Of a stretch of DNA of 32,000 nucleotides, positions 15,912 through 32,000 are shown in pieces (position 1 is the stretch's first letter; each line of letters starts with the position of its first letter). The stretch is from Oleispira antarctica RB-8 (GTDB lineage Bacteria > Pseudomonadota > Gammaproteobacteria > Pseudomonadales > Oceanobacteraceae): assembly GCA_000967895.1 (NCBI GenBank), contig FO203512.1:1293350-1325349 (forward strand), given 5' to 3'. Both the position numbers and the translations under genes were made by a program. The notes under the pieces were generated by a model. That model was not told the DNA's origin, made no database searches, and saw only the letters and a program-made list of their open reading frames with translations.

Positions 15912-15935
15912 GAATAAAAGGTCGAGGTGGTGGTT

Positions 15936-16538: not shown

Positions 16539-16552
16539 TGGGGCGTTCTTAA

Positions 16553-18268
16553 ATGGATAATGCAGTCGCTAACCCAGCTCAAAATCAAGCCGCCGATGAT
16601 ACGTCTTCCGAGTTGACGACGAACGAAGCGCTGGCTGATTCAGAATCAAATATGCATCCGGTTGTTGCCGGTTTTAATAAACTATCCATTGTGCGCCAAG
16701 CGGCCATGCTGGGTGGCTTTGCTTTGGTGATCGCGTTAACCATCGCTATTTTTATTTGGTCGCAAGAGCCTAATTACAAACCGCTAATTAATCGTATGCA
16801 AGATTATAACGCGCAAGAAATTGTTGAAGTTTTGCAGCGAGAAGGGTTTGAATTTGAAATCGATCCTACGTCACAAGTACTTCTGGTACGTGCTGATGAG
16901 TTGCACGATGCGCGCTTAAAGTTGGCGGCCGCGAGTTTGATCGACGACAAAACCGTTGGCCTTGAGTTGTTGGATAATGAATCCAATTTAGGCACCAGTC
17001 ATTTTATTGAAACCGCCCGTTACCGTCGTGGTTTAGAAGGCGAATTAGCCAGAACGATTGCCAGTATTCAAGCCGTTCGTAATGCCCGAGTTCATCTTGC
17101 CATTCCTAAGCAATCTGTTTTTGTGCGTGATCATCGACAGCCAAGAGCGTCTGTTTTTCTTGAGCTTTATGCCGGTGCGGCTTTGCATAAAGATCAGGTT
17201 GAAGCGATTGTTAATCTCGTATCTTCTTCGATTAGTGAAATGGATAAAGGCTCTGTTTCTGTGGTTGATCAGAAAGGGAATTTGCTGTCAAAAATAGAAC
17301 ATGATAGCCAAGAATTATTAGCGACGAAGCAATTGCAGTATACCGAACGCGTGGAAGACTCTATTAGTTCTCGGGTGAACAGCATATTAAAACCTGTGTT
17401 AGGCATCGAAAATTATAAAGCAGAAGTATCGGCAGATATTGATTTTACGGTGGTGGAGCAATCGGAAGAAACCTTTAATCCCGATTTAATTGCCGTGCGC
17501 AGTGAGCAATTAATAAATGAGCAAACAGTGAGTGGTGCTGAAGGTGGTATACCGGGCGCGCTGACTAATCAGCCTCCGGGTCAGGCTGAAGCGCCTGAGC
17601 AAATTGATCCAGCGACGGGGCAGCCTATTACGCCTATGGATAAACGCAGTGAAACAACGCGTAATTATGAAGTCGATCGCACGTTAAGTTATAAACAGCA
17701 GCAAGTGGGGCGTATTAATCGTTTAACGGTTGCGGTTGTGATTAATGATAAGCAATCTTTAAATGCCGAAACCGGAGACATGCAATTTGTACCTTGGGCG
17801 GAAGAAGATTTAGCGCGTTTAGAAATATTAGTGAAAGATGCTGTTGGCTTTAGTGCCGCGCGGGGTGATAGTGTTAATGTCATTAATTCGCCTTTCATGG
17901 GTAAGGGTGAAATTGAATTAGGCAGCCCAGAATTTTGGACTCAGCCTTGGTTCTGGGAAATTATGAAGCAGGTATTGGCAGGATTATTCTTACTGGTGCT
18001 GATTTTCGGTGTAATTCGTCCTACGATTCATAGTATTGCCAATAAAGGCCGTAGTGATGAAGACGGTATGGGCTTAGATGAGTTGGCCGATGCCGACGAT
18101 GAATTTGACGAAGATAAGGTCACTTTGTCTGGGGCTGATAACTTTTTATTACCGGGGGCGTCAGAAAGTTTTGAGCGCCAACTGGATGCCCTTAAAGGTC
18201 TTATCGCTGAAGATCCTGCGCGGGTAGCGCAAGTGGTTATTCAATGGATTAATGCTAGTGATGATTAA
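16553..18268 (+). CDS. fliF: Flagellar MS-ring protein FliF
   Basis: 571 aa. N-terminal transmembrane segment (LGGFALVIALTIAIFIW), then the YscJ/FliF core (LEGELARTIASIQAVRNARVHLAIPKQSVFVRD). C-terminal transmembrane segment (VLAGLFLLVLIFGVI) and an acidic FliG-binding tail. Confidence 0.95.
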   Translation: MDNAVANPAQNQAADDTSSELTTNEALADSESNMHPVVAGFNKLSIVRQAAMLGGFALVIALTIAIFIWSQEPNYKPLINRMQDYNAQEIVEVLQREGFEFEIDPTSQVLLVRADELHDARLKLAAASLIDDKTVGLELLDNESNLGTSHFIETARYRRGLEGELARTIASIQAVRNARVHLAIPKQSVFVRDHRQPRASVFLELYAGAALHKDQVEAIVNLVSSSISEMDKGSVSVVDQKGNLLSKIEHDSQELLATKQLQYTERVEDSISSRVNSILKPVLGIENYKAEVSADIDFTVVEQSEETFNPDLIAVRSEQLINEQTVSGAEGGIPGALTNQPPGQAEAPEQIDPATGQPITPMDKRSETTRNYEVDRTLSYKQQQVGRINRLTVAVVINDKQSLNAETGDMQFVPWAEEDLARLEILVKDAVGFSAARGDSVNVINSPFMGKGEIELGSPEFWTQPWFWEIMKQVLAGLFLLVLIFGVIRPTIHSIANKGRSDEDGMGLDELADADDEFDEDKVTLSGADNFLLPGASESFERQLDALKGLIAEDPARVAQVVIQWINASDD

Positions 18269-18291
18269 CGTGCATAAGGTAACGCATTAAC

Positions 18292-19332
18292 ATGGCTGAA
18301 AATACAATGCCTTCAGAGGCAAATCAGAAAGAATTATTAGCAAACCTTTCACGGGTTGAGCGTGCAGCCATTTTATTGATGAGCTTGGGCGAAAAAGATG
18401 CGGCTGAAATTCTAAAGCACATGGGGCCAAAGGAAGTTCAGCGCGTTGGCACGTCTATGGCAACCTTGCACGATGTTCGTCAAGAGCAAGTGGAAGGTGT
18501 GGTGCTTGAGTTTTTGCAGGCGGTGAGTGGTCAAACGGGTATGGGCTTAGGTTCGGATGATTATATTCGTAATATGCTGCAGCAAGCCTTGGGCGATGAT
18601 AAAGCGGGTGCATTGATTGACCGTATTTTATTGGGTGGCAGTACCACGGGCTTGGATTCATTGAAGTGGATGGAGTCGCGCCAGGTTGCTGATTTAATTC
18701 GCCATGAGCATCCGCAGATTCAAGCGATTGTTATTTCTTATTTAGACCCTGATCAATCGGCAGAGATTTTGTCGAATTTTGATGAGAAGGTGCGTCTCGA
18801 TATTATTATGCGTGTTGCGTCATTAGAAGCGGTTCAGCCAGCGGCATTGCAAGAATTGAATGACATTCTTGAGCGTCAATTCTCAGGCAAAGCCGGTACG
18901 CAAACTCAGACCATGGGTGGCGTTAAGGTGGCAGCCAGCATTGTTAACTTGGTTGATAGCACCATTGCCAATGATCTGCTTGAGCAGATTAAAGAAACGG
19001 ATGAAGACATGGGGACTAAGATTCAAGACCTTATGTTTGTTTTCGACAATCTTGTGGATGTGGACGATCGTGGTATTCAGGCACTGATGCGTGAAGTTTC
19101 AACTGACATATTGGTGGTTGCGCTGAAAGGCGCCGATACGGCGGTGCAGGAGAAAATATTCAAAAACATGTCGAAGCGTGCGGCTGAATTATTACGCGAT
19201 GATTTAGAAGCGAAAGGCCCAATGAAGGTAAGCGAAGTTGAAAACGCGCAAAAAGAAATTCTTCTTATTGCACGTCGTTTGGCGGATGCGGGTGAAATTA
19301 TGCTTGGTGGTGGTGGTGAGGCTATGGTGTAA
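18292..19332 (+). CDS. fliG: Flagellar motor switch protein FliG
   Basis: RVERAAILLMSLGEKDAAEILKHMGPKEVQRV... and ...MSKRAAELLRDDLEAKGPMKVSEVENAQKEILLIARRLADAGEI are FliG N- and C-domain signatures. Confidence 0.96.
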   Translation: MAENTMPSEANQKELLANLSRVERAAILLMSLGEKDAAEILKHMGPKEVQRVGTSMATLHDVRQEQVEGVVLEFLQAVSGQTGMGLGSDDYIRNMLQQALGDDKAGALIDRILLGGSTTGLDSLKWMESRQVADLIRHEHPQIQAIVISYLDPDQSAEILSNFDEKVRLDIIMRVASLEAVQPAALQELNDILERQFSGKAGTQTQTMGGVKVAASIVNLVDSTIANDLLEQIKETDEDMGTKIQDLMFVFDNLVDVDDRGIQALMREVSTDILVVALKGADTAVQEKIFKNMSKRAAELLRDDLEAKGPMKVSEVENAQKEILLIARRLADAGEIMLGGGGEAMV

Positions 19333-19338
19333 ACCATT

Positions 19339-20391
19339 GTGACGGCTATGACGACGACTACGGTGAATACGATGAAAGAAGATGAGGATGATGAGTTTGA
19401 GGCAAGCAGTGAAGATATTGAGATAAAACCGTGGGATTTGCCTTATTGGCATGGTGGGCCAAAAGGTACAAAAAAAGAAGTTGTCGATGAGACGGTGGCT
19501 GATGAAGAGGTTGATGTTGTTGAGCCGCTTACGGTTGAAGAGCTGGAAGCTATTCGCAGTGAAGGCTACGAAGAAGGTTTTTTGCAAGGCTTAAACGAAG
19601 GTCGAGACAAGGGTGAAAAAGAGGGCTTGGCGACGGGTAAAGTCGAGGGTCATAAAGAAGGCGTGAAAGAGGGTACGCAAGAAGGTAATCGAATTGGTTT
19701 TGAAGCTGGGCAGGCGGAAGGTCTTACGTCGGGTAAAGAAGAAATAAGCGAAGCGGCGAGTAACTTGGCAAAATTAAGCCAGCAGTTAGAGCAAAGTCTG
19801 GTTGAAAAAGACAGTGCATTGCCTAAAGTTTTGAGCCAGTTAATTAGAACGGCGTGCGAAACGATTATTGAGCGTGAGTTAGCGCAAGGCGATGATCATA
19901 TTACTAAGAAAGTATTGTCGGCGCTTGATCAGCTTCCTAATGGTGCTGAAAATATTAAAATTTATGTTAGTCCCGCAGATTCGGTGCATTTAGAGCATGG
20001 CTTAAGTCATTCTGGTCGTGAAATGCATTTTACGGTGGATGACGTTTTAGATGCAGGCAGTGCTCGAATTACCACGACGCAATCGTTAATTGAATTTAGC
20101 CTGCGTGAACGAATGGACGCTGTATTTGAGCTGATCGATCAGGAGTGTGAAAAACTTGATCTATCGGATATTGACGGTGAGCCGTTAGCTACGGAAGAAC
20201 CTGTTATTGAAGAAGAACCTGTTGTCGAAGAAGAGCCTGTCATCGAAGAAGAGCCTGTCATCGAAGAAGAGCCTGTCATCGAAGAAGAACCTGTCATCGA
20301 AGAAGAACCTGTTGTCGAAGAAGAACCTGTCATCGAAGAAGAACCTATAGCAGCCGATAACGATGTGACTGAAGAAGATGACTTGCCATGA
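19339..20391 (+). CDS. fliH: Flagellar export ATPase regulator FliH with an acidic tandem-repeat C-terminal tail (start uncertain: GTG 19339, ATG 19348 or ATG 19372)
   Basis: Glycine/alanine-repeat helix [58 protein letters not shown], then a FliH core (..[14 protein letters not shown]..). The stop overlaps the fliI start (ATGA). The gene sits between fliG and fliI. Confidence 0.9.
20194..20346 (+). repeat. 18-bp in-frame tandem repeat, about 8.5 copies, encoding (EEEPV[I/V])n
   Basis: The unit GAAGAAGARCCTGTYRTY is repeated head to tail. Copies differ only at a few mostly synonymous positions (GAA/GAG, GTT/GTC, ATT/ATC), plus Ile/Val. Confidence 0.95.
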
Positions 20392-21737
20392 GTTTGAGCG
20401 ATCAAATTAGTAATATCAGTCTTGAAAAATTATCACTGCAAAAAAAAGCCAGCGGACGCTTAATCCGTATGGTGGGATTAACTCTAGAGGCTGAAGGCCT
20501 TGTTGTAAAAATTGGCGATCGTTGCATGGTTGAACGTCGTGATGATACCGATATTGAAGCCGAAGTGGTTGGCTTTGATGGCAGTCGTATATTTCTTATG
20601 CCGATTGAACAAGTTGATGGCTTGCAGGCTGGGACTAAAGTTAGCCCCCTGTCGGGCTCTAACGGCGTGCCAGTCGGCTTTCAATTGCTGGGTCGTGTAC
20701 TTGATGGTATTGGCCGACCTTTAGACGGTAAAGGCCCACTGCATGCCGAAGAAGGTTCATTGCAAGGCGAGCAGATTAATCCATTGCATCGAGATCCTAT
20801 TCGCACCACCTTAGATGTGGGCATACGTTCTATTAATGCGCTGATGACTGTGGGTCGTGGTCAGCGTTTAGGGCTATTTGCAGGCAGTGGCGTGGGTAAA
20901 AGTATGCTGCTGGGTATGATGACACGTTTTACCGAAGCGGATATTACTGTGGTAGGTTTAATTGGTGAGCGTGGCCGAGAAGTAAAAGAATTTATTGATG
21001 AAATTTTAGGTGAAGAAGGCATGGCGCGTTCGGTGGTGATTGCTTCTCCAGCTGACGATTCTCCCTTGATGCGTCTACGTGCTGCGATGTATTGCACATC
21101 GGTAGCCGAGTACTACCGTAAGCAAGGTAAAAACGTATTACTGCTTATGGATTCTTTAACCCGTTATGCCCAAGCCCAGCGAGAAATTGCATTGGCGGTT
21201 GGCGAACCTCCTGCAACCAAGGGTTATCCACCTTCGGTATTTACCAAAATTCCTAAGTTAGTAGAGCGCGCGGGTAATGGTGAAGCAGGTGGTGGTTCGA
21301 TCACCGCGTTTTATACGGTGTTAAGTGAAGGTGATGATTTACAAGATCCGGTGGCCGATGCCAGTCGTGCTATTTTGGATGGCCACATTGTATTATCGCG
21401 AAAATTAGCCGATGAAGGACATTACCCTGCGATTGATATTGAAGCGTCGATCAGTCGTGCGATGCCGCAAATAGTATCAAAAGATTGGCTACGTAAAGCT
21501 CAAATGCTGCGTCAGTTGTATGCACACTACCAAGAGAATAAAGATTTAGTGAGTGTGGGGGCATATCAAGCAGGGACCGACCCTACGCTGGATTTGGCGT
21601 TGAATCGAATGCCCATGATTCAAAGCTTCTTGCAACAGGAATTAACTGAGTGCGTTAAAATTGACGCCAGTCTTGAGCAGTTAAATGTCATTCTTCCTGA
21701 TGTGCCGCAGGCGGATGTGAGTGGGCAAACTGTATGA
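20388..21737 (+). CDS. fliI: Flagellum-specific type III export ATPase FliI
   Basis: Walker A GSGVGKS, Walker [10 protein letters not shown], and conserved ERAG...[21 protein letters not shown] overlaps with fliH (start) and fliJ (end). Confidence 0.97.
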
Positions 21738-22183
21738 GTAAGCAACGAGTTAAGCGTTTAGGCTTTGTATTAAAAATGGCGGCTGATAAAGAACAGCAAG
21801 ATTTAAAGGTATGGGGTCAATATCAGCAGAAGCTAGAGCAGGAAGTTGGCACGCTCACCCAACTTGAGCAATATATGACGGAATACCGTAGCAGTTTAAC
21901 CAGTCAGCATGCCGCACCTATTCAAGGTGGACAGATACAAAATACCATTGCTTTTATTGAACAAATTAAAGAGGCAAGTGGTCATCAGCAGCAGCAAATC
22001 GATCTGGTTCAGCAACAAGCCGAGGGTGCTAAGCGCGTCTATTTGGCGGCGCGCGCAAAGGCTGAAGCCTTGCGTAAGCTGATTGAAAAATTAAATCTAC
22101 AAGCGTATGCACTGGAAGAAAAGCAAGATCAGAAAATGATGGATGAATTTGCTGCCCGCAGTGCTCGTAACCGTCAGTTATAG
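21734..22183 (+). CDS. fliJ: Flagellar export protein FliJ
   Basis: 149-aa coiled-coil protein ([45 protein letters not shown]...). It is translationally coupled to fliI in the conserved position. Confidence 0.85.
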
Positions 22184-22305
22184 TTTTAGAACTCGTCTTT
22201 ATTAAATTCCTATATTCACAATCCTTTCTTTATATTCCAATCAACATTAGCAGCTTTCCAATTGCCGTCTATTCTTAAAGTAAATGAAAATAGGAATGGA
22301 ATGAC

Positions 22306-22599
22306 ATGTCTGAAGGGCATCAAGTTGAATGCGGTGAGCGAATGACCATCGAAAAGGTCGAGAGTTTGTATAGCCAGTTAGAATCAGCGTTGTTAGAGCA
22401 CGGTAAAATTGAGCTTATTGCTGATCGTGTTCAGCAGTGCGATACCGCGTCACTTCAGTTAATCGTAAACCTTCTTAAAGCATCAAAACAGCAAGGTCAT
22501 AGTGTGATATGGATTAAACCTTCGCAGGCTATTATCAATGTGGCTGAGCTGTTGGGCTTAATTGAACCGCTAGAGCTGACACAACATATTGTGCGGTAG
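22306..22599 (+). CDS. Small STAS-domain protein (97 aa), first gene of the chemosensory block
   Basis: IELIADRVQQCDTASLQLIVNLLKASKQQGHSVIWIKPSQAIINVAELLGLIEPLEL has the beta-alpha pattern of STAS / anti-sigma-antagonist-like (MlaB-like) proteins. It has D-T-A-S instead of the canonical DSSGLG. Confidence 0.7.
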   Translation: MSEGHQVECGERMTIEKVESLYSQLESALLEHGKIELIADRVQQCDTASLQLIVNLLKASKQQGHSVIWIKPSQAIINVAELLGLIEPLELTQHIVR

Positions 22600-22625
22600 C
22601 AATTTATTCAGAAGCAATTTATTCA
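22598..22625 (+). repeat. Direct repeat AGCAATTTATTCA x2 at a 15-bp period, between the STAS gene and cheY
   Basis: Identical 13-mers at 22598-22610 and 22613-22625. The first overlaps the STAS stop codon. Confidence 0.8.
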
Positions 22626-22646
22626 CAAGATTGAGGGAGTATGCCA

Positions 22647-23009
22647 ATGGCAACCATTTTGGCGGTAGACGATTCTGCATCAATGCGACAAATGGTCACG
22701 TTCACGTTAAAAGGTGCAGGCTATGATGTTCAGGAAGCTTGTGATGGCAGTGAAGCTTTAAACATCGCTAAAACGCAAAAATTTGATTTGGTCTTGTCGG
22801 ATGTGAATATGCCCGTTATGGATGGTATTCAATTGGTTACAGAGCTACGCACACTGCCTGAGTACAAGTTTGTGCCGATTCTTATGCTAACAACAGAGTC
22901 TTCTGGTGATACAAAAATGGCGGGTAAAAAAGCAGGTGCGACGGGCTGGATTGTTAAGCCATTTAATCCAGATCAGCTATTAAATACCATTAAGAAAGTA
23001 TTAGGTTAA
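22647..23009 (+). CDS. cheY: Chemotaxis response regulator CheY (the ORF also opens at ATG 22641)
   Basis: ILAVDDSASMRQMV...LVLSDVNMPVMDG...ILMLTTES...GATGWIVKPF is a single-domain CheY. ATG 22647 is 8 nt from the RBS GAGGGA; ATG 22641 is only 2 nt from it. Confidence 0.93.
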   Translation: MATILAVDDSASMRQMVTFTLKGAGYDVQEACDGSEALNIAKTQKFDLVLSDVNMPVMDGIQLVTELRTLPEYKFVPILMLTTESSGDTKMAGKKAGATGWIVKPFNPDQLLNTIKKVLG

Positions 23010-23014
23010 TTATT

Positions 23015-25135
23015 ATGAGTATTGATCTCTCGCAATTTCATCAGGTTTTCTTTGAAGAAAGTTTTGAAGGCTTGGATATTATGGAGTCCAGTTTATTAGC
23101 ACTGGATTTAGCGGACGTTGATGCTGAAACTATTAATACTATTTTTCGTGCGGCGCATTCAATTAAGGGAGGCGCGGGCACTTTTGGCTTTATGCAAATA
23201 TCCGGTTTTACTCATGTACTGGAAACATTATTAGATGAAATTCGAGGGGGGGCACGGGAAATAGAGCAGGAACATGTTGATATTTTTTTGCAATGCGTTG
23301 ATTGCTTGCGAGGCTTGATGAGTGATCTGCAAGCAGGCTCCGAGCCTGAGATGACTCAAGCTAATGAACTGAAAAGTAAGTTTGAGATTATTTTAGCCGG
23401 AGAGGCTGTCTGTGTTGATAGTGAGGCCGCGACCGGATCGGCGATAGAAAACCAAAGCTTTGATTCAGACCCAGCGTCAGGTTCTGACAGTCGTAAGAAA
23501 GGTTGGAAAATTGAGTTTATTCCCTGTGAAGATGTTTTATGCACCGGTAATGAACCTTATAGAATGTTTCGTGAGCTAAAGGATTTAGCCGAAGCGGAAG
23601 CGGGCAGTCTTGATGTTATTCCTCATTTAGAGGCATTACCTGAATTCTCTGGGATGCACCCAGAGATGTGCTATCTCTCTTGGACTGTATTTGTGCGTGC
23701 CGATGTAGAATTGGCTGACATTGAAGAAATATTTGAATGGGTTGTAGACGATTGCGAAATTCGCTATGAACGCCTTTCAGACACAGAAGTGGTTGAAGCA
23801 TCGGTTGCTGTTGAATCAAAAGTTGAAAACTCTGCCGTCGAAGAGTCAATCGCCGTTGAAGAAACGGTAGAAGAAACGATAGAAAAAACGGTGGCGATTG
23901 CAGAAGCACCATCCCCTAAAGCAGCCAATAAAACAGTAGAAAATACCTCTATACGCGTCTCCATAGATAAGATTGATGGCTTGATCAATATGGTGGGTGA
24001 GTTAGTTATAACTCAATCCATGCTCGGTCAGTTGGGCCAAGAATTTGATATGAGTCGAATCCAACGTTTACAAGAAGGCTTGTCGCAGCTTGAGCAAAAT
24101 ACTCGCGAGCTGCAAGAAAGTGTGATGAAAATTCGCATGCTGCCAATCAGTTTTGCGTTCAGTCGTTTTCCTCGCCTGGTTCATGACTTGAGTAAACAGC
24201 TTGAGAAAGAAGTTGAGCTGGTAATGATTGGCGAAAATACCGAGTTGGATAAAACGGTGATGGAGAAAATTGGCGATCCTCTGGTTCACCTTGTGCGCAA
24301 CTCCCTTGATCATGGCTTGGAGTGCCCACAACAACGGCTTGAAAATGGTAAGTCCAGTATCGGTACTATTACGCTAAACGCCTATCATCATGGTGGTTCT
24401 ATTGTTATTGAAGTGAAAGATGATGGTGCGGGTTTAAACAAAGATAGAATTCGCAATAAAGCGATTGAAAAAGGATTGATTGCTGAAGATGAACATCTGA
24501 CTGATGGTCAGATTTACGATCTTATTTTTCAGCCAGGATTTTCAACCGCCGATGTAGTGAGCGATGTCTCTGGCCGAGGTGTGGGAATGGATGTGGTGCG
24601 CCGAAATATTGCAGAGCTTAATGGCTCTATTGATGTTTCGTCAACCCCAGGAGAAGGCTCAGTTTTCTCAATTAGACTGCCACTTACGTTAGCAATTCTT
24701 GATGGTCAGTTGGTTAAAGTGGGCGAAGAAATCTATATTTTCCCCTTGGTCTCTATTGTGGAATCTATTCAGCTAGAAAAATCGATGTTGAATAATATTA
24801 CCGGTAATCAGTTTGTGATGCAGCTGCGTAATGATTTTGTTCCTATTGTTTGCTTGCAAGATATTTTTAATATTAAGGCAGAAAAGAAAGATCTTGAAGG
24901 CGCGATGCTGGTGGTTGTAGAGGGTGATAATGGCAAGGTAGGTATTGTCGTTGATGAACTGTTAGGCCAGCAACAAGTCGTGATTAAAAGCCTCGAGAAA
25001 AACTACCAAAAAGTCGATTCGATTTCCGGTGCCACAATTTTAGGGGATGGTACTGTTGCCTTAATTGTGGATATCTCGGGTTTAAATAATAAGTCGCCAG
25101 ATAAAAAATCTGACAATCAAACTCAAGCTGCTTAA
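23015..25135 (+). CDS. cheA: Chemotaxis histidine kinase CheA
   Basis: Hpt FRAAHSIKGGAGTFGF; dimerisation/H-box-like IRVSIDKIDGLINMVGELVI; HATPase DPLVHLVRNSLDHG, DDGAGLN, GRGVGMD; C-terminal CheW-like domain. Confidence 0.96.
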   Translation: MSIDLSQFHQVFFEESFEGLDIMESSLLALDLADVDAETINTIFRAAHSIKGGAGTFGFMQISGFTHVLETLLDEIRGGAREIEQEHVDIFLQCVDCLRGLMSDLQAGSEPEMTQANELKSKFEIILAGEAVCVDSEAATGSAIENQSFDSDPASGSDSRKKGWKIEFIPCEDVLCTGNEPYRMFRELKDLAEAEAGSLDVIPHLEALPEFSGMHPEMCYLSWTVFVRADVELADIEEIFEWVVDDCEIRYERLSDTEVVEASVAVESKVENSAVEESIAVEETVEETIEKTVAIAEAPSPKAANKTVENTSIRVSIDKIDGLINMVGELVITQSMLGQLGQEFDMSRIQRLQEGLSQLEQNTRELQESVMKIRMLPISFAFSRFPRLVHDLSKQLEKEVELVMIGENTELDKTVMEKIGDPLVHLVRNSLDHGLECPQQRLENGKSSIGTITLNAYHHGGSIVIEVKDDGAGLNKDRIRNKAIEKGLIAEDEHLTDGQIYDLIFQPGFSTADVVSDVSGRGVGMDVVRRNIAELNGSIDVSSTPGEGSVFSIRLPLTLAILDGQLVKVGEEIYIFPLVSIVESIQLEKSMLNNITGNQFVMQLRNDFVPIVCLQDIFNIKAEKKDLEGAMLVVVEGDNGKVGIVVDELLGQQQVVIKSLEKNYQKVDSISGATILGDGTVALIVDISGLNNKSPDKKSDNQTQAA

Positions 25136-25146
25136 GGGAGTAGTGC

Positions 25147-25695
25147 ATGATAAATGCAGCTCAGAAAAACAAGAATGATAAAGGCTCTAGTATTAACACT
25201 TCAGGTACGAGTGATGATGAACAGCAATATTTAACTTTCATTATGGCAGGAGAAGAATACGGCGTTGATATTTTAGCGGTTCAAGAGATACGAGGCTGGG
25301 AACCAACCACGGTTATTCCAAATGCACCCAGTTATATCAAAGGTGTTATTAATCTACGAGGAACCATCGTTCCCATTATGGATTTGCGAAGTCGATTTAA
25401 TTTAGAGCGTATTGAATACAGCCCAGTGACCGTGGTTATTATTCTTAAGGTCGAAACCGAGCGTGGCGAGCGGGTTATGGGAATTGTTGTTGATGCAGTA
25501 TCCGACGTTCACTCGATCAGTGATTCTGATACCCGTAATAGTCCCGATTTAATAGAAGATTTAAATACCGAGTTTATTCGCAGCTTGGTTTCGGTAGATG
25601 ACAGTATGATTATTTTATTGGACGTACAGCGACTATTAACGATTGATAAGCAATTAGTAGATTTAGCCGCTGATGCAATAGTCGATACCCAATAG
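25147..25695 (+). CDS. cheW: Chemotaxis coupling protein CheW
   Basis: YLTFIMAGEEYGVDILAVQEIRGW...PNAPSYIKGVINLRGTIVPIMDLR is the CheW signature. An RBS AAGGGAG lies upstream. Confidence 0.95.
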   Translation: MINAAQKNKNDKGSSINTSGTSDDEQQYLTFIMAGEEYGVDILAVQEIRGWEPTTVIPNAPSYIKGVINLRGTIVPIMDLRSRFNLERIEYSPVTVVIILKVETERGERVMGIVVDAVSDVHSISDSDTRNSPDLIEDLNTEFIRSLVSVDDSMIILLDVQRLLTIDKQLVDLAADAIVDTQ

Positions 25696-25731: not shown

Positions 25732-28281
25732 ATGTCTGAAGAGCAAGATTCAACACATTGGAAAACGCCAGCACTAACGGTTATTCCAGCCGCATTCGCA
25801 TTTTTGTATTTGGTGGTTACGGCCGCTAACGTCGGTTTGTCTGCCGTAGTCGCTGTAATAGGCGTTGTTCTATCTATCGTTTTGGGCTGGGTGTTGTTAT
25901 CCAAGCATGAGGTGCAAGATGGTAATGCCATTGAAACTGAGCGGTTAGTGAAAGCGCTGAATGTGTGTAATACCAATGTGATGTTAGCAGATGCTAATAA
26001 TGAGATTTGTTATACCAATGAATCCGTCAATATTATGATGAAAAACGCCGAAGCGGCTATTCGCAGTGAACTTCCTAATTTTAATAGTGCCAGTTTAATT
26101 GGCACTAATATGGATGTTTTTCATAAAAATCCTGCTCATCAAAAAAGTATGGTTGCGAGCTTAAATAAAACATATAAAACACACATTGTGGTGGGTGGTC
26201 GTACTCTTGGCTTAATTGCTACGCCTATTTTTTCAGATGACGAATTACGTTTGGGAACGGTGGTTGAGTGGTCTGATAAAACAGACGAATTAGCGAAAGA
26301 ACATGATGAGCAGCAAGTAGTAAAAGAAAATATTCGTATTCGAAAAGCGTTAGATGTTTGTAATACCAATGTGATGATGGCGGATGAAAATCTAAACATT
26401 GTTTACATGAATAAAGCCGTAAGTGACATGATGATTGAGGCCGAAACCGATTTAAAAGTGGCGCTACCCCATTTTAAGGCTCATGAATTGATGGGGGTTA
26501 ATATTGATGTTTTCCATAAAGATCCATCGCATCAGCGTGGTATGTTAGAAAAGTTAACGCATGTATATAAAACCACGATCGAAGTAGGAATACGTACGTT
26601 TAGTTTAATCGCAACGCCTGTATTTGAAGAAGGCCAACGTCTAGGCACTGTCGTCGAATGGCTTGATAAAACAGAAACTCTTGCGCAAGAAATTGCAGAA
26701 AAGATTGTGGCTGATACCAATGCTCGAGTAAAACAGGCGCTGGATTCTGTTTCAGGTAATACCATGATCGCCGATAATGACTTTAACATTATTTATATGA
26801 ATGCCGCGGTGCAGGGCATGATGAGTCATGCTGAAGGAGACATACAGAAAGATTTACCTCATTTTGATGCGAATAATCTGGTCGGTAAAAATATTGATAC
26901 CTTCCATAAAAACCCTGCTCATCAGCGCGATTTAGTCGCTAAAATGACAGGGACTTATAAAGCACACATCGTTTTGGGGGGGCGAACGTTTGTATTGATT
27001 GCTAATCCGATTGAAAATGAACAAGGCGAACGCATAGGTGCTGTAGTGGAATGGCTGGATCGTACCGACGAAGTGGCTGTTGAAAAAGAAGTCGATGGTT
27101 TGGTGCAAGCGGCGATTAATGGCGATTTATCGCATCGTTTAGAAACCAGCAATAAAGAAGGTTTTTTCTTAAGTCTGGCCGATGGACTTAATAACTTAGT
27201 CGGCATCGCTGAAGACGTCGTTAACGATACCGCACGAGTATTGGATGCTTTAGCTAATGGGCGATTAACAGAAACCATTACGGCTGATTATCAAGGCTCA
27301 TTTGGCAAGCTCAAACAAGATTCTAATGCGACGGTAGTCAAGCTCACCGAGATTATAACGAATATTCGTGAGTCGGCCTCGACGGTCTCGATAGGTGCCA
27401 ATGAGATTGCTCAGGGTAATGCTGATTTGAGTCAACGGACTGAATCACAAGCGTCAAACCTTGAAGAAACAGCGTCTAGTATGGAAGAGATGACCAGTGC
27501 GGTGAAGCAGACCAGTGAGAATTCTATACATGCAACTGAGTTGGCTGTTTCAGCCAGTAAGCAAGCGGCACAAGGTGGGGAAGTTGTGAGCCGTGCAGTG
27601 ATGGCAATGGACGAGATTAACCAAGCCAGTAATAAAATTGCTGATATTATTGGAGTCATTGATGAGATCGCCTTTCAAACAAATTTATTAGCCTTAAACG
27701 CCGCGGTAGAAGCAGCACGAGCAGGAGAGCAGGGCAGAGGCTTTGCCGTTGTGGCCGGGGAAGTACGAAGTCTCGCTCAGCGTTCGGCGGGTGCCGCGAA
27801 AGAAATTAAAGAACTGATTCGTGACAGTGTGGATAAGGTCAGCGCGGGAACTAACTTGGTTAACGAGTCAGGGAAAACATTAAAAGATATTGTATCCTCG
27901 GTGAAGCGAGTAACCGATATGATTGAAGAAATCAGTATTGCAGCCCACGAGCAGTCATCGGGAATAGAGCAGGTCAATAGTGCAATTTCGCAAATGGATG
28001 AAATGACACAACAAAATGCGGCGCTAGTAGAAGAGGCAACAGCTGCGGGTGAAGCTATGGCAGAGCAATCCCGAGGCATGATGAACCTGATGGATTTCTT
28101 TACCTTGAACAATTCAGCGACCAGCATGGAAGGTTATGTTAACCGCCCCTCTATTTCTGCACCGACCAATTCTACTCATTTTAATCCCGTTAGCCAGAAA
28201 CCTGTCACACAAAAGTCTTCTCACTCCCGTGAAGGCGCTATTGTGAGTGATTCAGCCGATGATGAATGGCAAGAGTTTTAA
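25732..28281 (+). CDS. Methyl-accepting chemotaxis protein: N-terminal membrane hairpin, three tandem Aer2-type PAS domains, HAMP-like region, signalling domain, C-terminal EWQEF pentapeptide
   Basis: Hydrophobic aa 13-56. A PAS unit occurs three times (..CNTNVM.AD....I.Y.N......M...E..I...LP.F....L.G.N.D.FHK.P.HQ........YK..I..G.RT..LIA.P......R.G.VVEW.D.T). The MCP hairpin tip reads [42 protein letters not shown]. Confidence 0.95.
25942..27069 (+). repeat. Triplicated PAS-coding unit (aa 71-185, 201-315, 331-446)
   Basis: Three collinear units of about 115 aa at 25942-26286, 26332-26676 and 26722-27069. Each has FHK[ND]P[AS]HQ and VVEW[SL]D[KR]T. Confidence 0.85.
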
Positions 28282-28338
28282 AACTTGATTATGCCTAATG
28301 CTCATGCAGCTGTCGATTACAGGGAAAAGGAATTCCCT

Positions 28339-29142
28339 ATGACAAGCAAAGACTTCGAGCGGATCGCAGATTTAGCAGGCCGTTATACCGGAATTGTATT
28401 AGGCGAGCATAAACACGATATGGTTTATGGCCGAATCGCTCGTCGAGTTCGCAAGTTGAATCTATCAAGTTTCACGGCTTATTTGGATTTTTTAGAAGCC
28501 AACCTTCAGCAAGAATTATCGAATTTTATTAATGTTATTACGACAAACTTAACCTCATTTTTTAGAGAAAATCACCATTTTGATTTTCTTTATAAGACGG
28601 TATTAGCAGAGGTTAAAAGAAAGAATCATGCGACGAAGCGCGTGCGAATTTGGTCTGCGGGTTGCTCGACAGGGATGGAGCCCTATTCAATAGCGATGAC
28701 GTTGATTAAGTTTGGCATACCAGCTGATTGGGATGTGAAAATATTAGCAACGGACTTAGATTCTGATGTGCTAGATAAAGCACGAACTGCTGTGTACTCA
28801 GTCAATGAGGTTGATGGTTTAGCAGAAGGGGTTGTTAAAAATTATTTTCAACGTGGCGGCACAGGAAAAGAAGTAAGAGTAAAAGAAAGGGTGAGTCAGT
28901 TTGTTCATTTTAAGCGTTTAAATCTGCTAGAAAACTGGCCAATGAAAGGGCCGTTTGACTTTATATTTTGTCGAAATGTTGTGATCTATTTTGACAAGCC
29001 AACCCAGAAAATATTATTTGATCGTTATGCTGAGCTGTTATCGGTAGGAGGCTATCTATTTATTGGTCATTCTGAAAATTTACACGGCATCAGTGATCGC
29101 TTTGAAAATTTAGGAAATACTGTTTATAGGAAGATACGCTAA
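28339..29142 (+). CDS. cheR: Chemotaxis protein methyltransferase CheR (the ORF also opens at TTG 28285 and ATG 28291)
   Basis: DFERIADLAGRYTGIVLGEHKHDMVYGRIARRVRKLNL (N-domain), TNLTSFFRE, IWSAGCSTGMEPYSIAM (SAM site), IFCRNVVIYFD. ATG 28339 has the best RBS (AAGGAA, 7-nt spacer). Confidence 0.93.
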   Translation: MTSKDFERIADLAGRYTGIVLGEHKHDMVYGRIARRVRKLNLSSFTAYLDFLEANLQQELSNFINVITTNLTSFFRENHHFDFLYKTVLAEVKRKNHATKRVRIWSAGCSTGMEPYSIAMTLIKFGIPADWDVKILATDLDSDVLDKARTAVYSVNEVDGLAEGVVKNYFQRGGTGKEVRVKERVSQFVHFKRLNLLENWPMKGPFDFIFCRNVVIYFDKPTQKILFDRYAELLSVGGYLFIGHSENLHGISDRFENLGNTVYRKIR

Positions 29143-29807
29143 TGACCGCGTTGAATAATAACGTCTCTCAGCCTGAACAGCCTCCTTTAAGTCAAGATTT
29201 TACACATATAAACCGTTATTGGGACAATCTTCATCAAGTCTGGGCGGCTAAAATATTGCCGGGTGAATTGTATGTGTCTACCCATGGGGAAATGATTTCA
29301 ACTGTATTAGGATCTTGTATTTCGGTGTGCATTCGCGACAAGAAAAAAGGGATTGGAGGCATGAATCATTTTATGCTGCCGCAAAATAATGAATTTTCTA
29401 GTGAGAGTTGGGGGACTAATCCGATTACTTCAGCGTCTCGTTACGGTAATTGGGCGATGGAGTATTTGATCAATGCTATTTTAAAATGCGGTGGTGAAAA
29501 GAAAAACTTTGAAGTGAAAGTTTTTGGTGGTGGTCAGATGATGGCAAGAATGACTGATATTGGCCAAAAAAATATCCTATTTGTGTATCAATATTTAGCA
29601 GAAGAAAAACTGAGGATTGAGGCCAGTGATGTGGGTGATATTTATGCTCGAAAAGTTTTGTATTTTCCTGATACGGGTTGTGTAAAAGTTAGGCGTATAA
29701 AACATATTAAAAACGATACAATTATTCGTCGTGAAACTGAATACGAACAGCATGTGAAAGTTGTGGATGAAGCTAAGCCTGATGCGAGTAATGTCGAGCT
29801 ATTTTAG
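29142..29807 (+). CDS. cheD: Chemoreceptor glutamine deamidase CheD
   Basis: ILPGELYVSTHGEMISTVLGSCISVCIRD...GGMNHFMLP contains the CheD catalytic Cys and His context. The start overlaps the cheR stop (TAATG). Confidence 0.9.
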   Translation: MTALNNNVSQPEQPPLSQDFTHINRYWDNLHQVWAAKILPGELYVSTHGEMISTVLGSCISVCIRDKKKGIGGMNHFMLPQNNEFSSESWGTNPITSASRYGNWAMEYLINAILKCGGEKKNFEVKVFGGGQMMARMTDIGQKNILFVYQYLAEEKLRIEASDVGDIYARKVLYFPDTGCVKVRRIKHIKNDTIIRRETEYEQHVKVVDEAKPDASNVELF

Positions 29808-29816
29808 GGAGGGGTC

Positions 29817-30848
29817 ATGGTTAAAATTCGTGTATTGGTAATTGATGATTCTGCACTCATTAGACAAATGCTAACAGAAATATTAAACAGTCGAGATGAT
29901 ATAGACGTTGTAGGCACTGCTGAAGATCCTTTTATTGCTAGAGAAAAAATAAAGCAGTTATCGCCCGATGTATTAACTCTAGACATTGAAATGCCGAGAA
30001 TGACGGGGTTGCAGTTTTTAAAAAACCTAATGCGCTTGCGCCCTATGCCTGTGATTATGGTTTCTACATTAACTGAACGTGGTGCGCCGGAAACGTTAGA
30101 GGCTTTAGAGCTGGGTGCTGTCGATTATATTTGCAAGCCTAAAGCGAAGACGGAAACCAAGCTTAGAATATTTGCCGATGATCTCGTAAGTAAAGTAAGA
30201 ATGGCATCAACCGCTCGGGTGCGGCCATTTGAACAGAATAAAACCCGTGTTCCTGTCGCTCGATCAAGTGCCACGTTTTCTAAAGTGATTGCTGTGGGTG
30301 CTTCTACTGGAGGAACGGAAGCTATTAAAGAACTGCTCACGTCGGTTCCTGAAAATTGCCCGCCCATTTTAATTACTCAGCACATTCCTAAAGTATTCAG
30401 TACGTCTTTTGCTGAACGGCTTGATCGCTGTTTGGCGATGGAAGTATTTGAAGCCCAAGAAGGTATGATAATTCGTTCTGGCTGTGTGTATATAGCACCT
30501 GGCGACTATCACTTAACGATTGCCAAGTCGGGAACTAAGATGGTTTGTCGTATTATTCAAACGGAAAAGGTAAACCGTCACCGACCTGCTGTTGATGTAA
30601 TGTTCAACTCAATATTGGAAGCTTATGGCCCCAACGTTGTGGCCGTTATGTTAACGGGCATGGGGAATGATGGCGCTCAGGGAATGCTTAAATTAAAGCA
30701 AGCGGGCGCGGTGACTTACGCGCAAGATGAGGCGACGTCGGTTGTCTGGGGGATGCCTCAGGCGGCATACAATATCGGCGCTGTCGATGAATTGCTTCCT
30801 CTGCAAAAAATTACTGAGAGAATGCTTTGGTCAGCGCAAAAAAAATGA
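29817..30848 (+). CDS. cheB: Chemotaxis response regulator protein-glutamate methylesterase CheB
   Basis: Receiver VLVIDDSALIRQ...LTLDIEMPRMTG. Esterase motifs AVGASTGGTEA, ITQHIPKVFS, MLTGMGNDGA. An RBS GGGAGGGG lies upstream. Confidence 0.96.
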   Translation: MVKIRVLVIDDSALIRQMLTEILNSRDDIDVVGTAEDPFIAREKIKQLSPDVLTLDIEMPRMTGLQFLKNLMRLRPMPVIMVSTLTERGAPETLEALELGAVDYICKPKAKTETKLRIFADDLVSKVRMASTARVRPFEQNKTRVPVARSSATFSKVIAVGASTGGTEAIKELLTSVPENCPPILITQHIPKVFSTSFAERLDRCLAMEVFEAQEGMIIRSGCVYIAPGDYHLTIAKSGTKMVCRIIQTEKVNRHRPAVDVMFNSILEAYGPNVVAVMLTGMGNDGAQGMLKLKQAGAVTYAQDEATSVVWGMPQAAYNIGAVDELLPLQKITERMLWSAQKK

Positions 30849-30917: not shown

Positions 30918-31223
30918 ATGGGTGTTCAGTCGAATATTGATAGTAGTGGAAAAGAGCTAACGATTAAGATTGGTGGCCGCTTTGATTTTAGTGCGCATCA
31001 AGAATTCCGCGATGCTTACGAAAATATTTCAACGGCTGTTAGTCGCTATGTTGTCGATTTAGGCAATACATCGTACTTGGATAGTTCGGCATTGGGGATG
31101 TTGTTATTACTTCGAGATCATGCAGGTGGAGATAATGCCAGCATTAAAATAGTTAAGTGTAATGAAGACGTACGAAAAATATTGACGATTTCTAATTTTG
31201 AACAGCTGTTTACAATTCAATAG
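30918..31223 (+). CDS. STAS-domain anti-sigma-factor antagonist-like protein with a canonical phospho-serine motif
   Basis: VVDLGNTSYLDSSALGMLLLLRD carries the D-S-S-x-L-G motif of SpoIIAA/RsbV-type antagonists. The protein is 101 aa. An RBS AAGGGAG lies upstream. Confidence 0.88.
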   Translation: MGVQSNIDSSGKELTIKIGGRFDFSAHQEFRDAYENISTAVSRYVVDLGNTSYLDSSALGMLLLLRDHAGGDNASIKIVKCNEDVRKILTISNFEQLFTIQ

Positions 31224-31243: not shown

Positions 31244-32000
31244 ATGAAAATCCTTATTGCTGACGATAATGCCTCAGATCGATTATTATTGAGTAAAATC
31301 ATCAGCAAACAGGGTCATGATGTTGTTGAGGCAGAAGATGGTAAGCATGCTATCGATTGTTACCTTGAGGACGCGCCTGACATTATTTTAATGGATGTCA
31401 TGATGCCGGTACTTGATGGTAAGGCTGCGGCAAAAGAAATTAAGCGCATTGCAGGTGAAGATTTAATTCCTATTATATTTTTAACTTCACTTATTGATGC
31501 TCAAAGTCTTGCGGATTGTTTAGAGTCTGGTGGTGATGATTTTTTAACCAAACCTTATAACCATATTATTCTTAAAGCTAAAATAGATGCATTTGTTCGT
31601 ATGAAAAACATGCATGGTATTTTACAGAAGCAGCGAGATACTATTGCTGCGAATAATCAGCACATGTTGCAGGAGCAGCATGTTGCAAAAGCGGTATTTG
31701 ATAATGTTGCGCACTCAGGTTGTTTAGATGCCGCTAATATTAAATACATGCTGTCTCCTTTAGCGGTATTTAATGGTGATGTTTTATTAGCCGCCCGTAA
31801 ACCTTCTGGTGGTATGCATGTACTTTTGGGCGACTTCACGGGCCATGGGTTGCCAGCGGCGATTGGGGCAATGCCAGTAGCTGAAATATTTTATGGTATG
31901 ACCGCAAAGGGTTTTGGGTTGCGTAATATTCTGCGAGAAATTAATACCAAGCTTAAGAATATTTTACCGGTAGGCTTTTTCTGCTGCGCAGCGGTTGTCG
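31244..32000 (+). CDS. Response-regulator receiver fused to a PP2C/SpoIIE-type serine phosphatase; the 3' end lies beyond the window
   Basis: My own translation from ATG 31244 (RBS GGGTGG): MKILIADDNASDRLLLSKII...IILMDVMMPVLDG...IFLTS...TKPY (receiver), then ...VFNGDVLLAARKPSGGMHVLLGDFTGHGLPAAIGAMPVAEIFY (start of the SpoIIE/PP2C domain). The frame is open to base 32000. It is absent from the ORF track because it has no stop in the window. Confidence 0.88.
   Translation, partial: MKILIADDNASDRLLLSKIISKQGHDVVEAEDGKHAIDCYLEDAPDIILMDVMMPVLDGKAAAKEIKRIAGEDLIPIIFLTSLIDAQSLADCLESGGDDFLTKPYNHIILKAKIDAFVRMKNMHGILQKQRDTIAANNQHMLQEQHVAKAVFDNVAHSGCLDAANIKYMLSPLAVFNGDVLLAARKPSGGMHVLLGDFTGHGLPAAIGAMPVAEIFYGMTAKGFGLRNILREINTKLKNILPVGFFCCAAVV

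Follow-up and report, generated by a model that had tools for sequence, protein, structure and literature searches.

Chemoreceptors with three PAS-heme domains in tandem have already been characterised in the Aer2 family. The soluble VvAer2 of V. vulnificus was described by Stuffle et al. (2022, Mol Microbiol 119:59; PMC10107281), and its PAS1, PAS2 and PAS3 were shown experimentally to carry pentacoordinate b-heme and to bind O2. The roles reported for them are those of a dispensable unit, a modulator and a signaller, not those of separate gas sensors, and VvPAS1 and VvPAS2 look like the product of a duplication in the Vibrio lineage (PMC10107281). The tri-PAS-heme receptor LiAer2 of L. interrogans (Orillard and Watts 2022, J Bacteriol 204:e0056721, as cited in PMC10107281) is membrane-embedded according to the citing paper. 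In that account its deoxy hemes are hexacoordinate, a precedent for this state in Aer2 PAS domains, and a potential periplasmic ligand-binding domain lies between its membrane helices, which distinguishes it from the receptor treated here.

VcAer2 of V. cholerae (6CEQ) and Aer2so of S. oneidensis are likewise multi-PAS-heme receptors of F7 clusters, in which the penultimate PAS domain acts as a modulator; unlike the present receptor they have two PAS domains and are described as soluble or cytoplasmic. The same mutations act differently in VcAer2 and VvAer2. PaAer2 of P. aeruginosa, also named McpB or TlpG (3VOL, 4HI4), differs from our receptor in that its single PAS domain follows three HAMP domains and in being soluble. 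The Aer2 literature consulted here treats arrays of one to three units only.

The window analysed here, a stretch of 32,000 nucleotides from Oleispira antarctica RB-8, contains an aer2-like gene (25732..28281, + strand) encoding a methyl-accepting chemotaxis protein of 849 residues. By analogy with its homologues we read the product, with a probability of roughly 85%, as a heme-based O2-sensing chemoreceptor of the Aer2 family that would belong to an F7/Che2-type cluster and function as proposed below. A sequence-only reading of this DNA had presented the triple PAS arrangement as a further step beyond PaAer2 and VcAer2. This cannot be maintained, as the tri-PAS receptors VvAer2 and, by the citation in PMC10107281, LiAer2 were both characterised in 2022. 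The architecture has been studied at the bench and is common in genome databases, and the present receptor changes little in this respect.

Receptor architecture and gene cluster

The gene was recognised as an open reading frame with matches to Pfam MCPsignal (2.7e-55), HAMP_2 and PAS families and to the PDB entries of Aer2 and Tsr, and an AGGA ribosome-binding site lies 8 nt 5' of its ATG. Its product consists, in this order, of a hydrophobic hairpin, PAS1, PAS2, PAS3, a di-HAMP unit, a kinase-control module and an E-W-Q-E-F tail; the span 25942-27069 to which attention had first been drawn corresponds to aa 71-446. No identical protein is on record, and the best identity found in genomes of a species-representative collection is at most 73%.

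The last PAS domain is joined directly to the di-HAMP unit (aa ~448-542; 27073..27357, +), which was delimited by alignment to the PAS-HAMP structure 3VOL and by Pfam HAMP_2 at 476-535, and is followed by the kinase-control module (MCPsignal at 602-759), so that the Aer2 core is present. Residues 330-540, comprising PAS3 and the di-HAMP unit, align end to end with residues 21-231 of 3VOL (E 1.1e-69). The kinase-control (MCP signalling) module and its C-terminal linker (27358..28263, +) were placed by alignment to the Tsr fragment 1QU7 and to full-length Tsr. Residues 569-790 pair with 1QU7 residues 1-222 at equal length, and the alignment to full-length Tsr contains no indel C-terminal of HAMP, so the signalling domain is apparently of the 36H class. 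The methylation sites of Tsr map to S572, E579, E586 and E768. At the C-terminus, the pentapeptide E-W-Q-E-F (28264..28278, +) fits x-[HFYW]-x2-[HFYW], the tether motif for CheR/CheB as defined for Aer2-like receptors (PMC7184735). In the AlphaFold model the domains are connected by continuous helices (184-209, 314-338 and 445-462), similar to the inter-domain helices of the published VvAer2 model.

All neighbouring genes of the cluster are encoded on the + strand. It is headed by a STAS-domain protein of the anti-sigma-factor-antagonist type (22306..22599; STAS_2 3.6e-10), followed by cheY (22641..23009; Response_reg 1.1e-29), cheA (23015..25135; Hpt, H-kinase_dim, HATPase_c and CheW domains) and cheW (25147..25695; CheW 8.6e-37). 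Downstream of the receptor gene are cheR (28285..29142; CheR 9.2e-63 and CheR_N), cheD (29142..29807; CheD 1.2e-28), cheB (29817..30848; CheB_methylest 5.4e-65 and Response_reg), a second, RsbV/CrsA-like STAS protein (30918..31223; STAS_2 2.1e-11) and an RsbU/CrsR-like response regulator fused to a PP2C/SpoIIE phosphatase (31244..32000; Response_reg 3.8e-22, SpoIIE 5.7e-10), which is truncated by the window end. The resulting order, STAS-cheY-cheA-cheW-aer2-cheR-cheD-cheB-STAS-RR/PP2C, is identical in the Oleispira MAG L003, and gene order points to a chemosensory system of the F7/Che2 type.

Similar layouts are found in P. aeruginosa, V. cholerae and V. vulnificus (che2/che3 clusters; PMC10107281) and in the S. 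oneidensis che1 cluster, which carries CrsR/CrsA. In detail, PaAer2 shares the order cheY-cheA-cheW-aer2-cheR-cheD-cheB, the pentapeptide tail and an Aer2 core that matches ours throughout, from PAS over di-HAMP to kinase control, and the VvAer2 che cluster also contains cheD and RsbU/RsbV-type genes. In S. oneidensis, CrsR and CrsA (RR-PP2C and STAS) control RpoS, and an equivalent gene pair flanks the cluster described here.

The three PAS-heme units

A profile scan detected exactly three PAS units in the receptor, and the AF2 model likewise contains three PAS folds, with pLDDT above 90 across these domains. PAS1 (aa 70-186; 25939..26289, +) has the E-eta histidine His131, a second histidine His136, the G-beta tyrosine Tyr148, the H-beta leucine Leu161, the I-beta tryptophan Trp180 and D182-K-T184; it matches 4HI4 in phmmer (E 1.8e-31) and is 45% identical to the PAS domain of PaAer2 without gaps. 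The corresponding residues are His262, His267, Tyr279, Leu292, Trp310 and D312-K-T314 in PAS2 (aa 201-316; 26332..26679, +; 3VOL, phmmer E 3.1e-35; 53% identity) and His392, His397, Tyr409, Leu422, Trp441 and D443-R-T445 in PAS3 (aa 331-447; 26722..27072, +; 3VOL, phmmer E 9.1e-46; 59% identity), the PAS domain of the Aer2 core.

The three pairs H131/W180, H262/W310 and H392/W441 with a spacing of 48-49 residues, as given in the sequence-only reading, were confirmed by a regex scan. The histidines lie in FHKNPAHQ (130-137; H131, H136), FHKDPSHQ (261-268; H262, H267) and FHKNPAHQ (391-398; H392, H397), the tryptophans in VVEWSDKT (W180), VVEWLDKT (W310) and VVEWLDRT (W441), and the distances are 49, 48 and 49, a pattern well beyond chance. 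That reading had also proposed to check whether these residues map to the Aer2 ligand positions. They do so in all three units: in the alignment with PaAer2, the same columns hold the heme-ligating His, the His at +5, the H-beta Leu, the Trp that stabilises O2, and DxT. The PaAer2 positions, which we take to be H234, H239 and W283, fit a 4HI4 chain whose last residue is 289. H131, H262 and H392 align with the FHKNPAHQ histidine of both PaAer2 and VcAer2, and the I-beta tryptophans, W441 included, align with residue 276 of VcAer2 (Leu in the W276L mutant structure 6CEQ). With His and Trp at the ligand positions of PaAer2, PAS1, PAS2 and PAS3 are all classified by sequence as Aer2-type PAS-heme domains.

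A cofactor other than heme, e.g. FAD as in E. coli Aer, with redox sensing in place of direct O2 sensing, appears extremely improbable. PAS families are diverse in their cofactors, and the combination of PAS, membrane hairpin and MCP module is indeed Aer-like: Aer is a PAS aerotaxis MCP held in the membrane by a hydrophobic hairpin without periplasmic domain. It differs from our receptor, however, in its single FAD-binding PAS domain, in the position of the hairpin between PAS and HAMP, in redox sensing and in a dissimilar PAS sequence. The solved "Aerotaxis receptor" chain 31cj matches the signalling domain (541-777) only, and an FAD-type Aer identity was rejected on the ground that the PAS region has no similarity to this chain. 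PAS1-3 fall within the heme cluster of Aer2 type, where heme binding is determined primarily by the E-eta His, and their closest folds are heme-bound Aer2 structures, namely 3VOL (TM 0.85, 2.2 A) and 4HI4 (TM 0.90, 1.5 A), followed by 6CEQ.

[quoted passage not shown] The His-Trp spacing is 48-49 in our receptor and 50 in VvAer2. The G-beta Tyr is present in all three PAS domains here, in PAS1 and PAS2 only of VvAer2, and is replaced by His in PaAer2. The closest PAS sequences are nevertheless those of PaAer2 (45-59%, highest for PAS3), compared with 32-36% identity to a 147-aa V. vulnificus fragment, which is itself 75% identical to VcPAS2 and served as a stand-in for VvPAS3, and only 31-38% to VcPAS2. 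We infer that the triple-PAS arrangements of this receptor and of Vibrio probably arose by separate duplications. Within other receptors, the best matches of PAS3 are always the last PAS unit.

In the mechanism that we propose on the basis of homology, the E-eta His of each PAS domain (H131, H262, H392) would ligate one b-type heme. On entering the distal pocket, O2 would displace the H-beta Leu (L161, L292, L422) and be stabilised by the I-beta Trp (W180, W310, W441), possibly with help from the G-beta Tyr, and the DxT loop C-terminal to each Trp would pass this movement on to the helix that connects with the following domain. As the unit attached directly to di-HAMP and kinase control, PAS3 would relay the signal to CheA/CheW, while PAS2 and to a lesser degree PAS1 would modulate PAS3 as in VvAer2. 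CheR, CheD and CheB would adapt the receptor at its Glu sites, the enzymes being tethered by the C-terminal EWQEF, and the output would probably pass through CheY and the STAS/RR-PP2C partner switch, i.e. stress or sigma-factor control, and not straight to the flagellar motor. What we state on heme binding, on ligand specificity and on the roles of the individual PAS domains is transferred here from homologues, and with 31-38% identity between the PAS domains and those of Vibrio the division of labour in VvAer2 may not carry over.

The sequence-only reading had suggested graded or multi-gas sensing, that is, PAS-heme units tuned to different gases (O2, NO, CO) or O2 ranges for signal integration or a graded response. 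Selection keeps all three heme pockets intact, and for VvAer2 signal integration was explicitly left open; in addition, VvPAS1 is easily oxidised and binds O2 independently of Trp/Tyr, and its authors floated a redox sensor or a sensor of another ligand (PMC10107281). We found no support for such a tuning and consider it very unlikely. The pocket His, the His at +5, Tyr, Leu, Trp and DxT do not differ between PAS1-3, giving no hint of differing specificity, the VvAer2 PAS domains are similar in O2 and CO affinity with no integration seen, and nine of the nine Aer2 PAS domains studied have similar O2 affinity (PMC10107281).

The N-terminal hydrophobic hairpin

Hydropathy and conservation point to a hairpin of two predicted membrane helices at aa 12-57 (25765..25902, +) with a tight A32-N-V-G35 turn. 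A hairpin without periplasmic loop had earlier been placed at aa 13-56, and our limits agree closely: the 46 residues between K11 and K58 are all uncharged, the 19-residue Kyte-Doolittle means in this segment are 2.0-2.9 (maximum 2.88), and no window in the rest of the protein reaches 1.6. In the AF2 model a helix at 38-78 continues into the PAS1 N-cap. The topology was called from hydropathy, length, conservation and the required cytoplasmic location of the heme-PAS domains; a single-pass N-in topology and secretion were excluded because the heme-PAS, HAMP and signalling domains have to lie in the cytoplasm.

Could the start instead have been mis-called, or could the N-terminus be a signal peptide that is cleaved off, or else a membrane element of the peripheral or re-entrant kind? 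The first two variants would leave an essentially soluble receptor like VvAer2, which has 37 residues N-terminal of PAS1 and, in contrast to our receptor, no hydrophobic segment there. AF2 confidence is low at residues 1-37 (pLDDT <50), and the hairpin flanks have no clear positive-inside bias. Moreover, the published gammaproteobacterial Aer2 receptors are soluble, yet their arrays are membrane-associated (PMC10107281, PMC7184735), and short hydrophobic segments of M. alcaliphilum have been proposed to be membrane-embedded without spanning (PMC7184735). However, besides the AGGA site at the start codon, the first 62 codons including the hairpin align without gaps across four Oleispira MAGs with the same start codon, and the substitutions among them show a coding-type pattern, being enriched at third codon positions with replacements that remain hydrophobic. 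The 46 uncharged residues leave room for two helices and exceed the length of a signal peptide, and among the 90 relatives scanned, 28, from several families, likewise have an N-terminus of the hairpin type. Together with the cytoplasmic location demanded by the downstream domains, this renders such an N-terminus improbable, and we retain the predicted hairpin, with the properties of a membrane anchor and without an external sensing domain. Through it, the dimer and with it the array would be held at the inner membrane.

A topology like that of LiAer2, with membrane helices enclosing a periplasmic domain, was also considered and rejected, as the two helices are contiguous with a turn of four residues and a periplasmic domain is absent. 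The Leptospira relatives L034, L037 and L039 show a TM-domain-TM layout and a KFEKY tail in the locus scan, and relatives with 100-350 aa between the membrane helices form a class separate from the hairpin type. The contrast drawn earlier between the hairpin and "the soluble Aer2 proteins" therefore holds for VvAer2 but not for LiAer2, which PMC10107281 refers to as membrane-embedded.

Variation of array size and its possible meaning

The combination of hairpin and three PAS domains recurs 16 times in 80 related genome loci. Unit counts in the relatives were obtained with a profile-based unit scan and residue retention from column counts. Tandem arrays comprise 2-12 PAS-heme units, with three in our receptor and four in sister Oleispira genomes, and across 92 related receptors the His is retained in 267 and the Trp in 269 of 270 PAS units.

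Such variation, within the Oleispira clade as well as beyond it, would also be expected if only PAS3 were a sensor and PAS1 and PAS2 were mainly rigid dimeric spacers setting how far the CheA/CheW baseplate is from the membrane anchor, with heme serving folding stability. PAS3 alone suffices for signalling in VvAer2 and, as reported for LiAer2 in the same paper, in that receptor too, and VvPAS1 is largely dispensable (PMC10107281). F7 arrays are "tall", and the layers stacked in their cytoplasmic part match the PAS/HAMP domains; Aer2 is the sole receptor needed for the F7 array (PMC7184735), which suggests that its length could change without a clash with other receptors. The non-terminal units, however, keep Trp in 177 and His in 175 of 178 cases, nearly as strictly as the terminal units, and a pure spacer would not require the distal Trp, Leu and DxT. 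VvPAS2 also measurably modulates the PAS3 output, and PAS1 mutations alter behaviour (PMC10107281). A mere spacer function is therefore unlikely, and we keep to upstream units that would modulate PAS3.

It is a rather doubtful idea that the number of PAS-heme units evolves fast and serves as a tuning knob, with Aer2 as a "ruler" anchored in the membrane. If this were true, gain or loss of units behind an N-terminus fixed by the hairpin would alter the height of the F7 array, and O2 signalling would also change in gain or cooperativity, since every upstream heme domain would modulate the next one down. Nature would then provide a series of O2 sensors with 2-12 hemes and graded responses, of which the present receptor is one step. 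To study how upstream hemes modulate the signalling PAS, natural arrays with more units would be more suitable than this receptor. A covalent hairpin may explain how F7/Aer2 arrays can lie against the inner membrane although PaAer2, VcAer2 and VvAer2 are predicted to be soluble, and a hairpin-bearing homologue offers a convenient comparison for the association of these arrays with the membrane.

Three Aer2-type PAS units on an Aer2 core

Sequence and structure matches support the identification of a membrane-hairpin receptor with three Aer2-type PAS-heme domains in Oleispira antarctica RB-8. The open reading frame (25732..28281, forward strand) has an AGGA site 8 nt 5' of its start codon and encodes 849 aa, of which residues 71-446 correspond to the segment 25942-27069 where a sequence-only reading had listed three His/Trp pairs. 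A motif scan returned the identical set with spacings of 49, 48 and 49 residues in PAS1, PAS2 and PAS3, the motifs including FHKNPAHQ around His392 and VVEWLDRT around Trp441, and this repetition is beyond chance. In a six-way alignment of PAS domains all functional positions coincide in the three units, given here in the order PAS1, PAS2 and PAS3: the E-eta His (H131, H262, H392), the second His at +5 (H136, H267, H397), the G-beta Tyr (Y148, Y279, Y409), the H-beta Leu (L161, L292, L422), the I-beta Trp (W180, W310, W441) and the DxT motif (D182-T184, D312-T314, D443-T445).

The proposed mapping of these His and Trp residues to the Aer2 ligand positions was borne out, as the columns coincide in every unit. 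The Trp column is the position that carries Leu in 6CEQ, the W276L mutant of V. cholerae Aer2 (VcAer2), where this Leu is residue 276 when the 111-residue chain is numbered from residue 170. The positions given earlier for P. aeruginosa Aer2 (PaAer2), H234, H239 and W283, fit the 4HI4 chain when this is taken to end at residue 289. In the same alignment, identity to the PaAer2 PAS domain is 45% for PAS1, 53% for PAS2 and 59% for PAS3 (PAS1 and PAS3 ungapped), and 31–38% to the second PAS domain of VcAer2 and to a V. vulnificus fragment which is itself 75% identical to the latter. Each unit also retrieved the second PAS of VcAer2 (6CEQ) at E values of 1e-13 to 1e-17. In a 2023 survey the cluster of Aer2-type heme PAS domains is delimited by the E-eta His; all three units would be expected to bind heme, and a different cofactor is extremely improbable.

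The AlphaFold2 model of residues 1-470 has a mean pLDDT of 86, with values above 90 over the three PAS folds, and contains unbroken linker helices (184-209, 314-338, 445-462). Its top PDB matches are 3VOL (TM 0.85, 2.2 A, 58% identity) and 4HI4 (TM 0.90, 1.5 A), and its TM score to 6CEQ is 0.79. Residues 330-540 match 3VOL, an Aer2 PAS-HAMP structure, from end to end (E 1.1e-69). Pfam identified PAS families, HAMP_2 (aa 476-535) and MCPsignal (aa 602-759, 2.7e-55), and in a search of solved structures the C-terminal half aligned with E. coli Tsr without indels after HAMP. The 1QU7 fragment matches 222 residues to 222, and this equal length is consistent with a signalling domain of the 36H class. 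The layout of PAS3, di-HAMP and kinase-control module is the 'Aer2 core' as defined by Stuffle et al. (PMC10107281). The C-terminal end, EWQEF, conforms to the tether motif x-[HFYW]-x2-[HFYW], a 'fundamental feature' of Aer2-like receptors according to Ortega et al. (PMC7184735).

Unit number and pocket residues among relatives

A triple PAS receptor had been proposed as a new step after one unit in P. aeruginosa and two in V. cholerae, a view that is out of date: tri-PAS receptors are already known, and novelty of the triple architecture is not supported. V. vulnificus VvAer2 carries pentacoordinate b-heme in all three PAS domains via the E-eta His residues H101, H228 and H353 (PMC10107281), and L. 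interrogans LiAer2 is, in the summary given in that paper, a tri-PAS Aer2 that is embedded in the membrane, has a domain in the periplasm and carries hexacoordinate heme. A 2026 review gives the same picture, with one to three PAS domains per Aer2 receptor.

The nearest relatives are encoded in Oleispira MAGs (69–76% identity), and no identical protein was found in the collections searched. With the N-terminal 470 residues, 2467 proteins were retrieved at E <= 1e-10, and most of the best 120 of them have three His/Trp pairs. Species-representative genomes contained 593 relatives, in Gamma-, Beta- and Alphaproteobacteria and Leptospira. Units were counted by profile in 90 receptors (the present one, 79 of the 80 best loci and 10 database proteins), giving two units in 30, three in 47, four in 7, five in 3, six in 2 and twelve in 1. 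Adding the PaAer2 and VcAer2 reference domains (270 units, 92 receptors), the E-eta His is conserved in 267, the I-beta Trp in 269, the DxT Thr in 266, the H-beta Leu in 245 and the +5 His in 251 units. Given this near-universal conservation, heme-pocket spacing in all three PAS units is the family norm and not special to this receptor.

The G-beta position is Tyr in 179 of these units, Phe in 36 and His, as in PaAer2, in 35; the G-beta residue of the first VcAer2 PAS is able to stand in for Trp. Tyr takes the place of the +5 His in 12 non-terminal units, including several from the twelve-unit protein, and in no terminal one. Such variation may mark a functional difference between upstream and signalling PAS domains.

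PAS3 most resembles the terminal PAS in other receptors regardless of unit number, and beyond the Oleispira clade PAS1 and PAS2 do not pair consistently with units at any given position. Two Oleispira MAGs (L003, 9977-12928, and L004) have four units instead of three. The extra unit shares 70–75% identity with unit 2 in each of the five clade members, whose unit-2 orthologues are 81–85% identical to each other; as it is thus a copy of PAS2, unit number has changed among members of this genus-level clade, which agrees with recurrent lineage-specific duplication as proposed by Stuffle et al. (PMC10107281) for VvPAS1 and VvPAS2.

Longer arrays were also observed, with six units at loci L019 and L036 and five at L005, L007 and L012, the five-unit isolates being Shewanella benthica DSM 8812 and Exilibacterium tricleocarpae. 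The Kordiimonadales MAG NORP107 (L029:9145-15237) contains a 2031-aa ORF in which 12 consecutive PAS units, none lacking the heme His or the O2 Trp, precede HAMP_2, MCPsignal and a tail of sequence DWAEF. Two subtypes, FHKDPSYQ and FHKVPAHQ, alternate along the array, suggesting higher-order duplication, and an assembly artefact is possible in this MAG-derived array. No discussion of arrays beyond one to three PAS-heme units was found in the Aer2 literature surveyed.

Gene cluster and probable signalling

A STAS gene (22306-22599) heads the che cluster, followed by cheY, cheA, cheW, aer2, cheR, cheD and cheB, a second STAS gene (30918-31223) and a response regulator fused to PP2C/SpoIIE (31244-32000, reaching the window end), so that two separate anti-sigma antagonist-type genes bracket the cluster. 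It resembles the che2/che3 (F7) clusters of P. aeruginosa, V. cholerae and V. vulnificus, RsbU/RsbV-type pair included (PMC10107281), and also S. oneidensis che1, in which RpoS is under the control of the CrsR/CrsA pair. The STAS and response-regulator-PP2C genes point to a partner-switch output like CrsR/CrsA. Neither the window nor the syntenic locus L003 contains an McpA-like second receptor.

The published Aer2 mechanism, carried over by homology, is best supported. O2 would bind the PAS3 heme, the H-beta Leu would be displaced and the I-beta Trp would hydrogen-bond O2; the DxT loop would then shift and the signal pass via di-HAMP and the kinase-control module to CheA, with output probably via the partner-switch genes. 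Adaptation would proceed through CheR, CheD and CheB, and Glu579, Glu586 and Glu768 are equivalents of Tsr methylation sites. PAS2 and PAS1 would modulate via the connecting helices. In VvAer2, signalling falls to PAS3 with PAS2 as its modulator, PAS1 can largely be dispensed with, and O2 affinity is similar among the three domains (PMC10107281). That the upstream units serve mainly as structural spacers seems unlikely, and that each PAS senses a separate ligand is still less probable; the earlier idea of multi-gas sensing found no support.

The cluster lies directly 3' of fliE-F-G-H-I-J and fleQ, fleS and fleR-type regulators, and the junction (15927-23009) of fliE-fliF-fliG-fliH-fliI-fliJ with the Aer2/F7-type cluster recurs in L003. 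Of the 203-aa FliE ORF only residues 123-203 match the family, so this ORF, with its GTG start, is probably too long. Further upstream are a partial ORF (28-405) representing another flagellin C-terminus, a very large flagellin of 877 aa (763-3396) with about 650 aa between Flagellin_N and Flagellin_C at its ends, and an exceptionally large FliD filament cap (4099-8055, 1318 aa). Giant flagellins are known from marine Oceanospirillales. Between fliD and fliS, antisense to its neighbours and at the GC minimum of the window (0.37), lies a gene (8217-10349, reverse strand) for a 710-aa TPR and class-I methyltransferase protein, possibly a flagellin-modifying enzyme.

A probable N-terminal membrane hairpin

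The hydrophobic hairpin proposed for the N-terminus is supported by an uncharged stretch of 46 residues between K11 and K58, by its hydropathy (Kyte-Doolittle 19-residue means of 2.0–2.9, with no other window of at least 1.6 anywhere in the protein) and by its conservation in four Oleispira genomes. Its length suffices for two helices meeting at A32-N-V-G35. In these genomes the first 62 codons align ungapped from the same Met, their differences cluster at third positions (34–38 at position 3 versus 25–37 at positions 1 and 2 combined), and amino acid replacements remain hydrophobic. In the AlphaFold2 model, helix 38-78 runs on into the PAS1 N-cap, and residues 1-37 are not confident. That the segment is no true transmembrane hairpin is quite improbable. 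Since the heme-PAS, HAMP and signalling domains have to lie in the cytoplasm, a hairpin with both ends inside and without a periplasmic domain is the most likely topology.

Three units combined with a hairpin occur in 18 of the 90 receptors, namely the present one, the database entry P0010 and 16 loci from genomes, which belong to two Oleispira-like MAGs (L001, L002), several Pseudoalteromonas, Ketobacter, Alteromonas flava and alphaproteobacterial and other MAGs. Another 18 receptors have three units without a membrane segment and 10 have three with a periplasmic domain. The hairpin anchor is the only uncharacterised twist of this receptor, yet one that is frequent in genomes.
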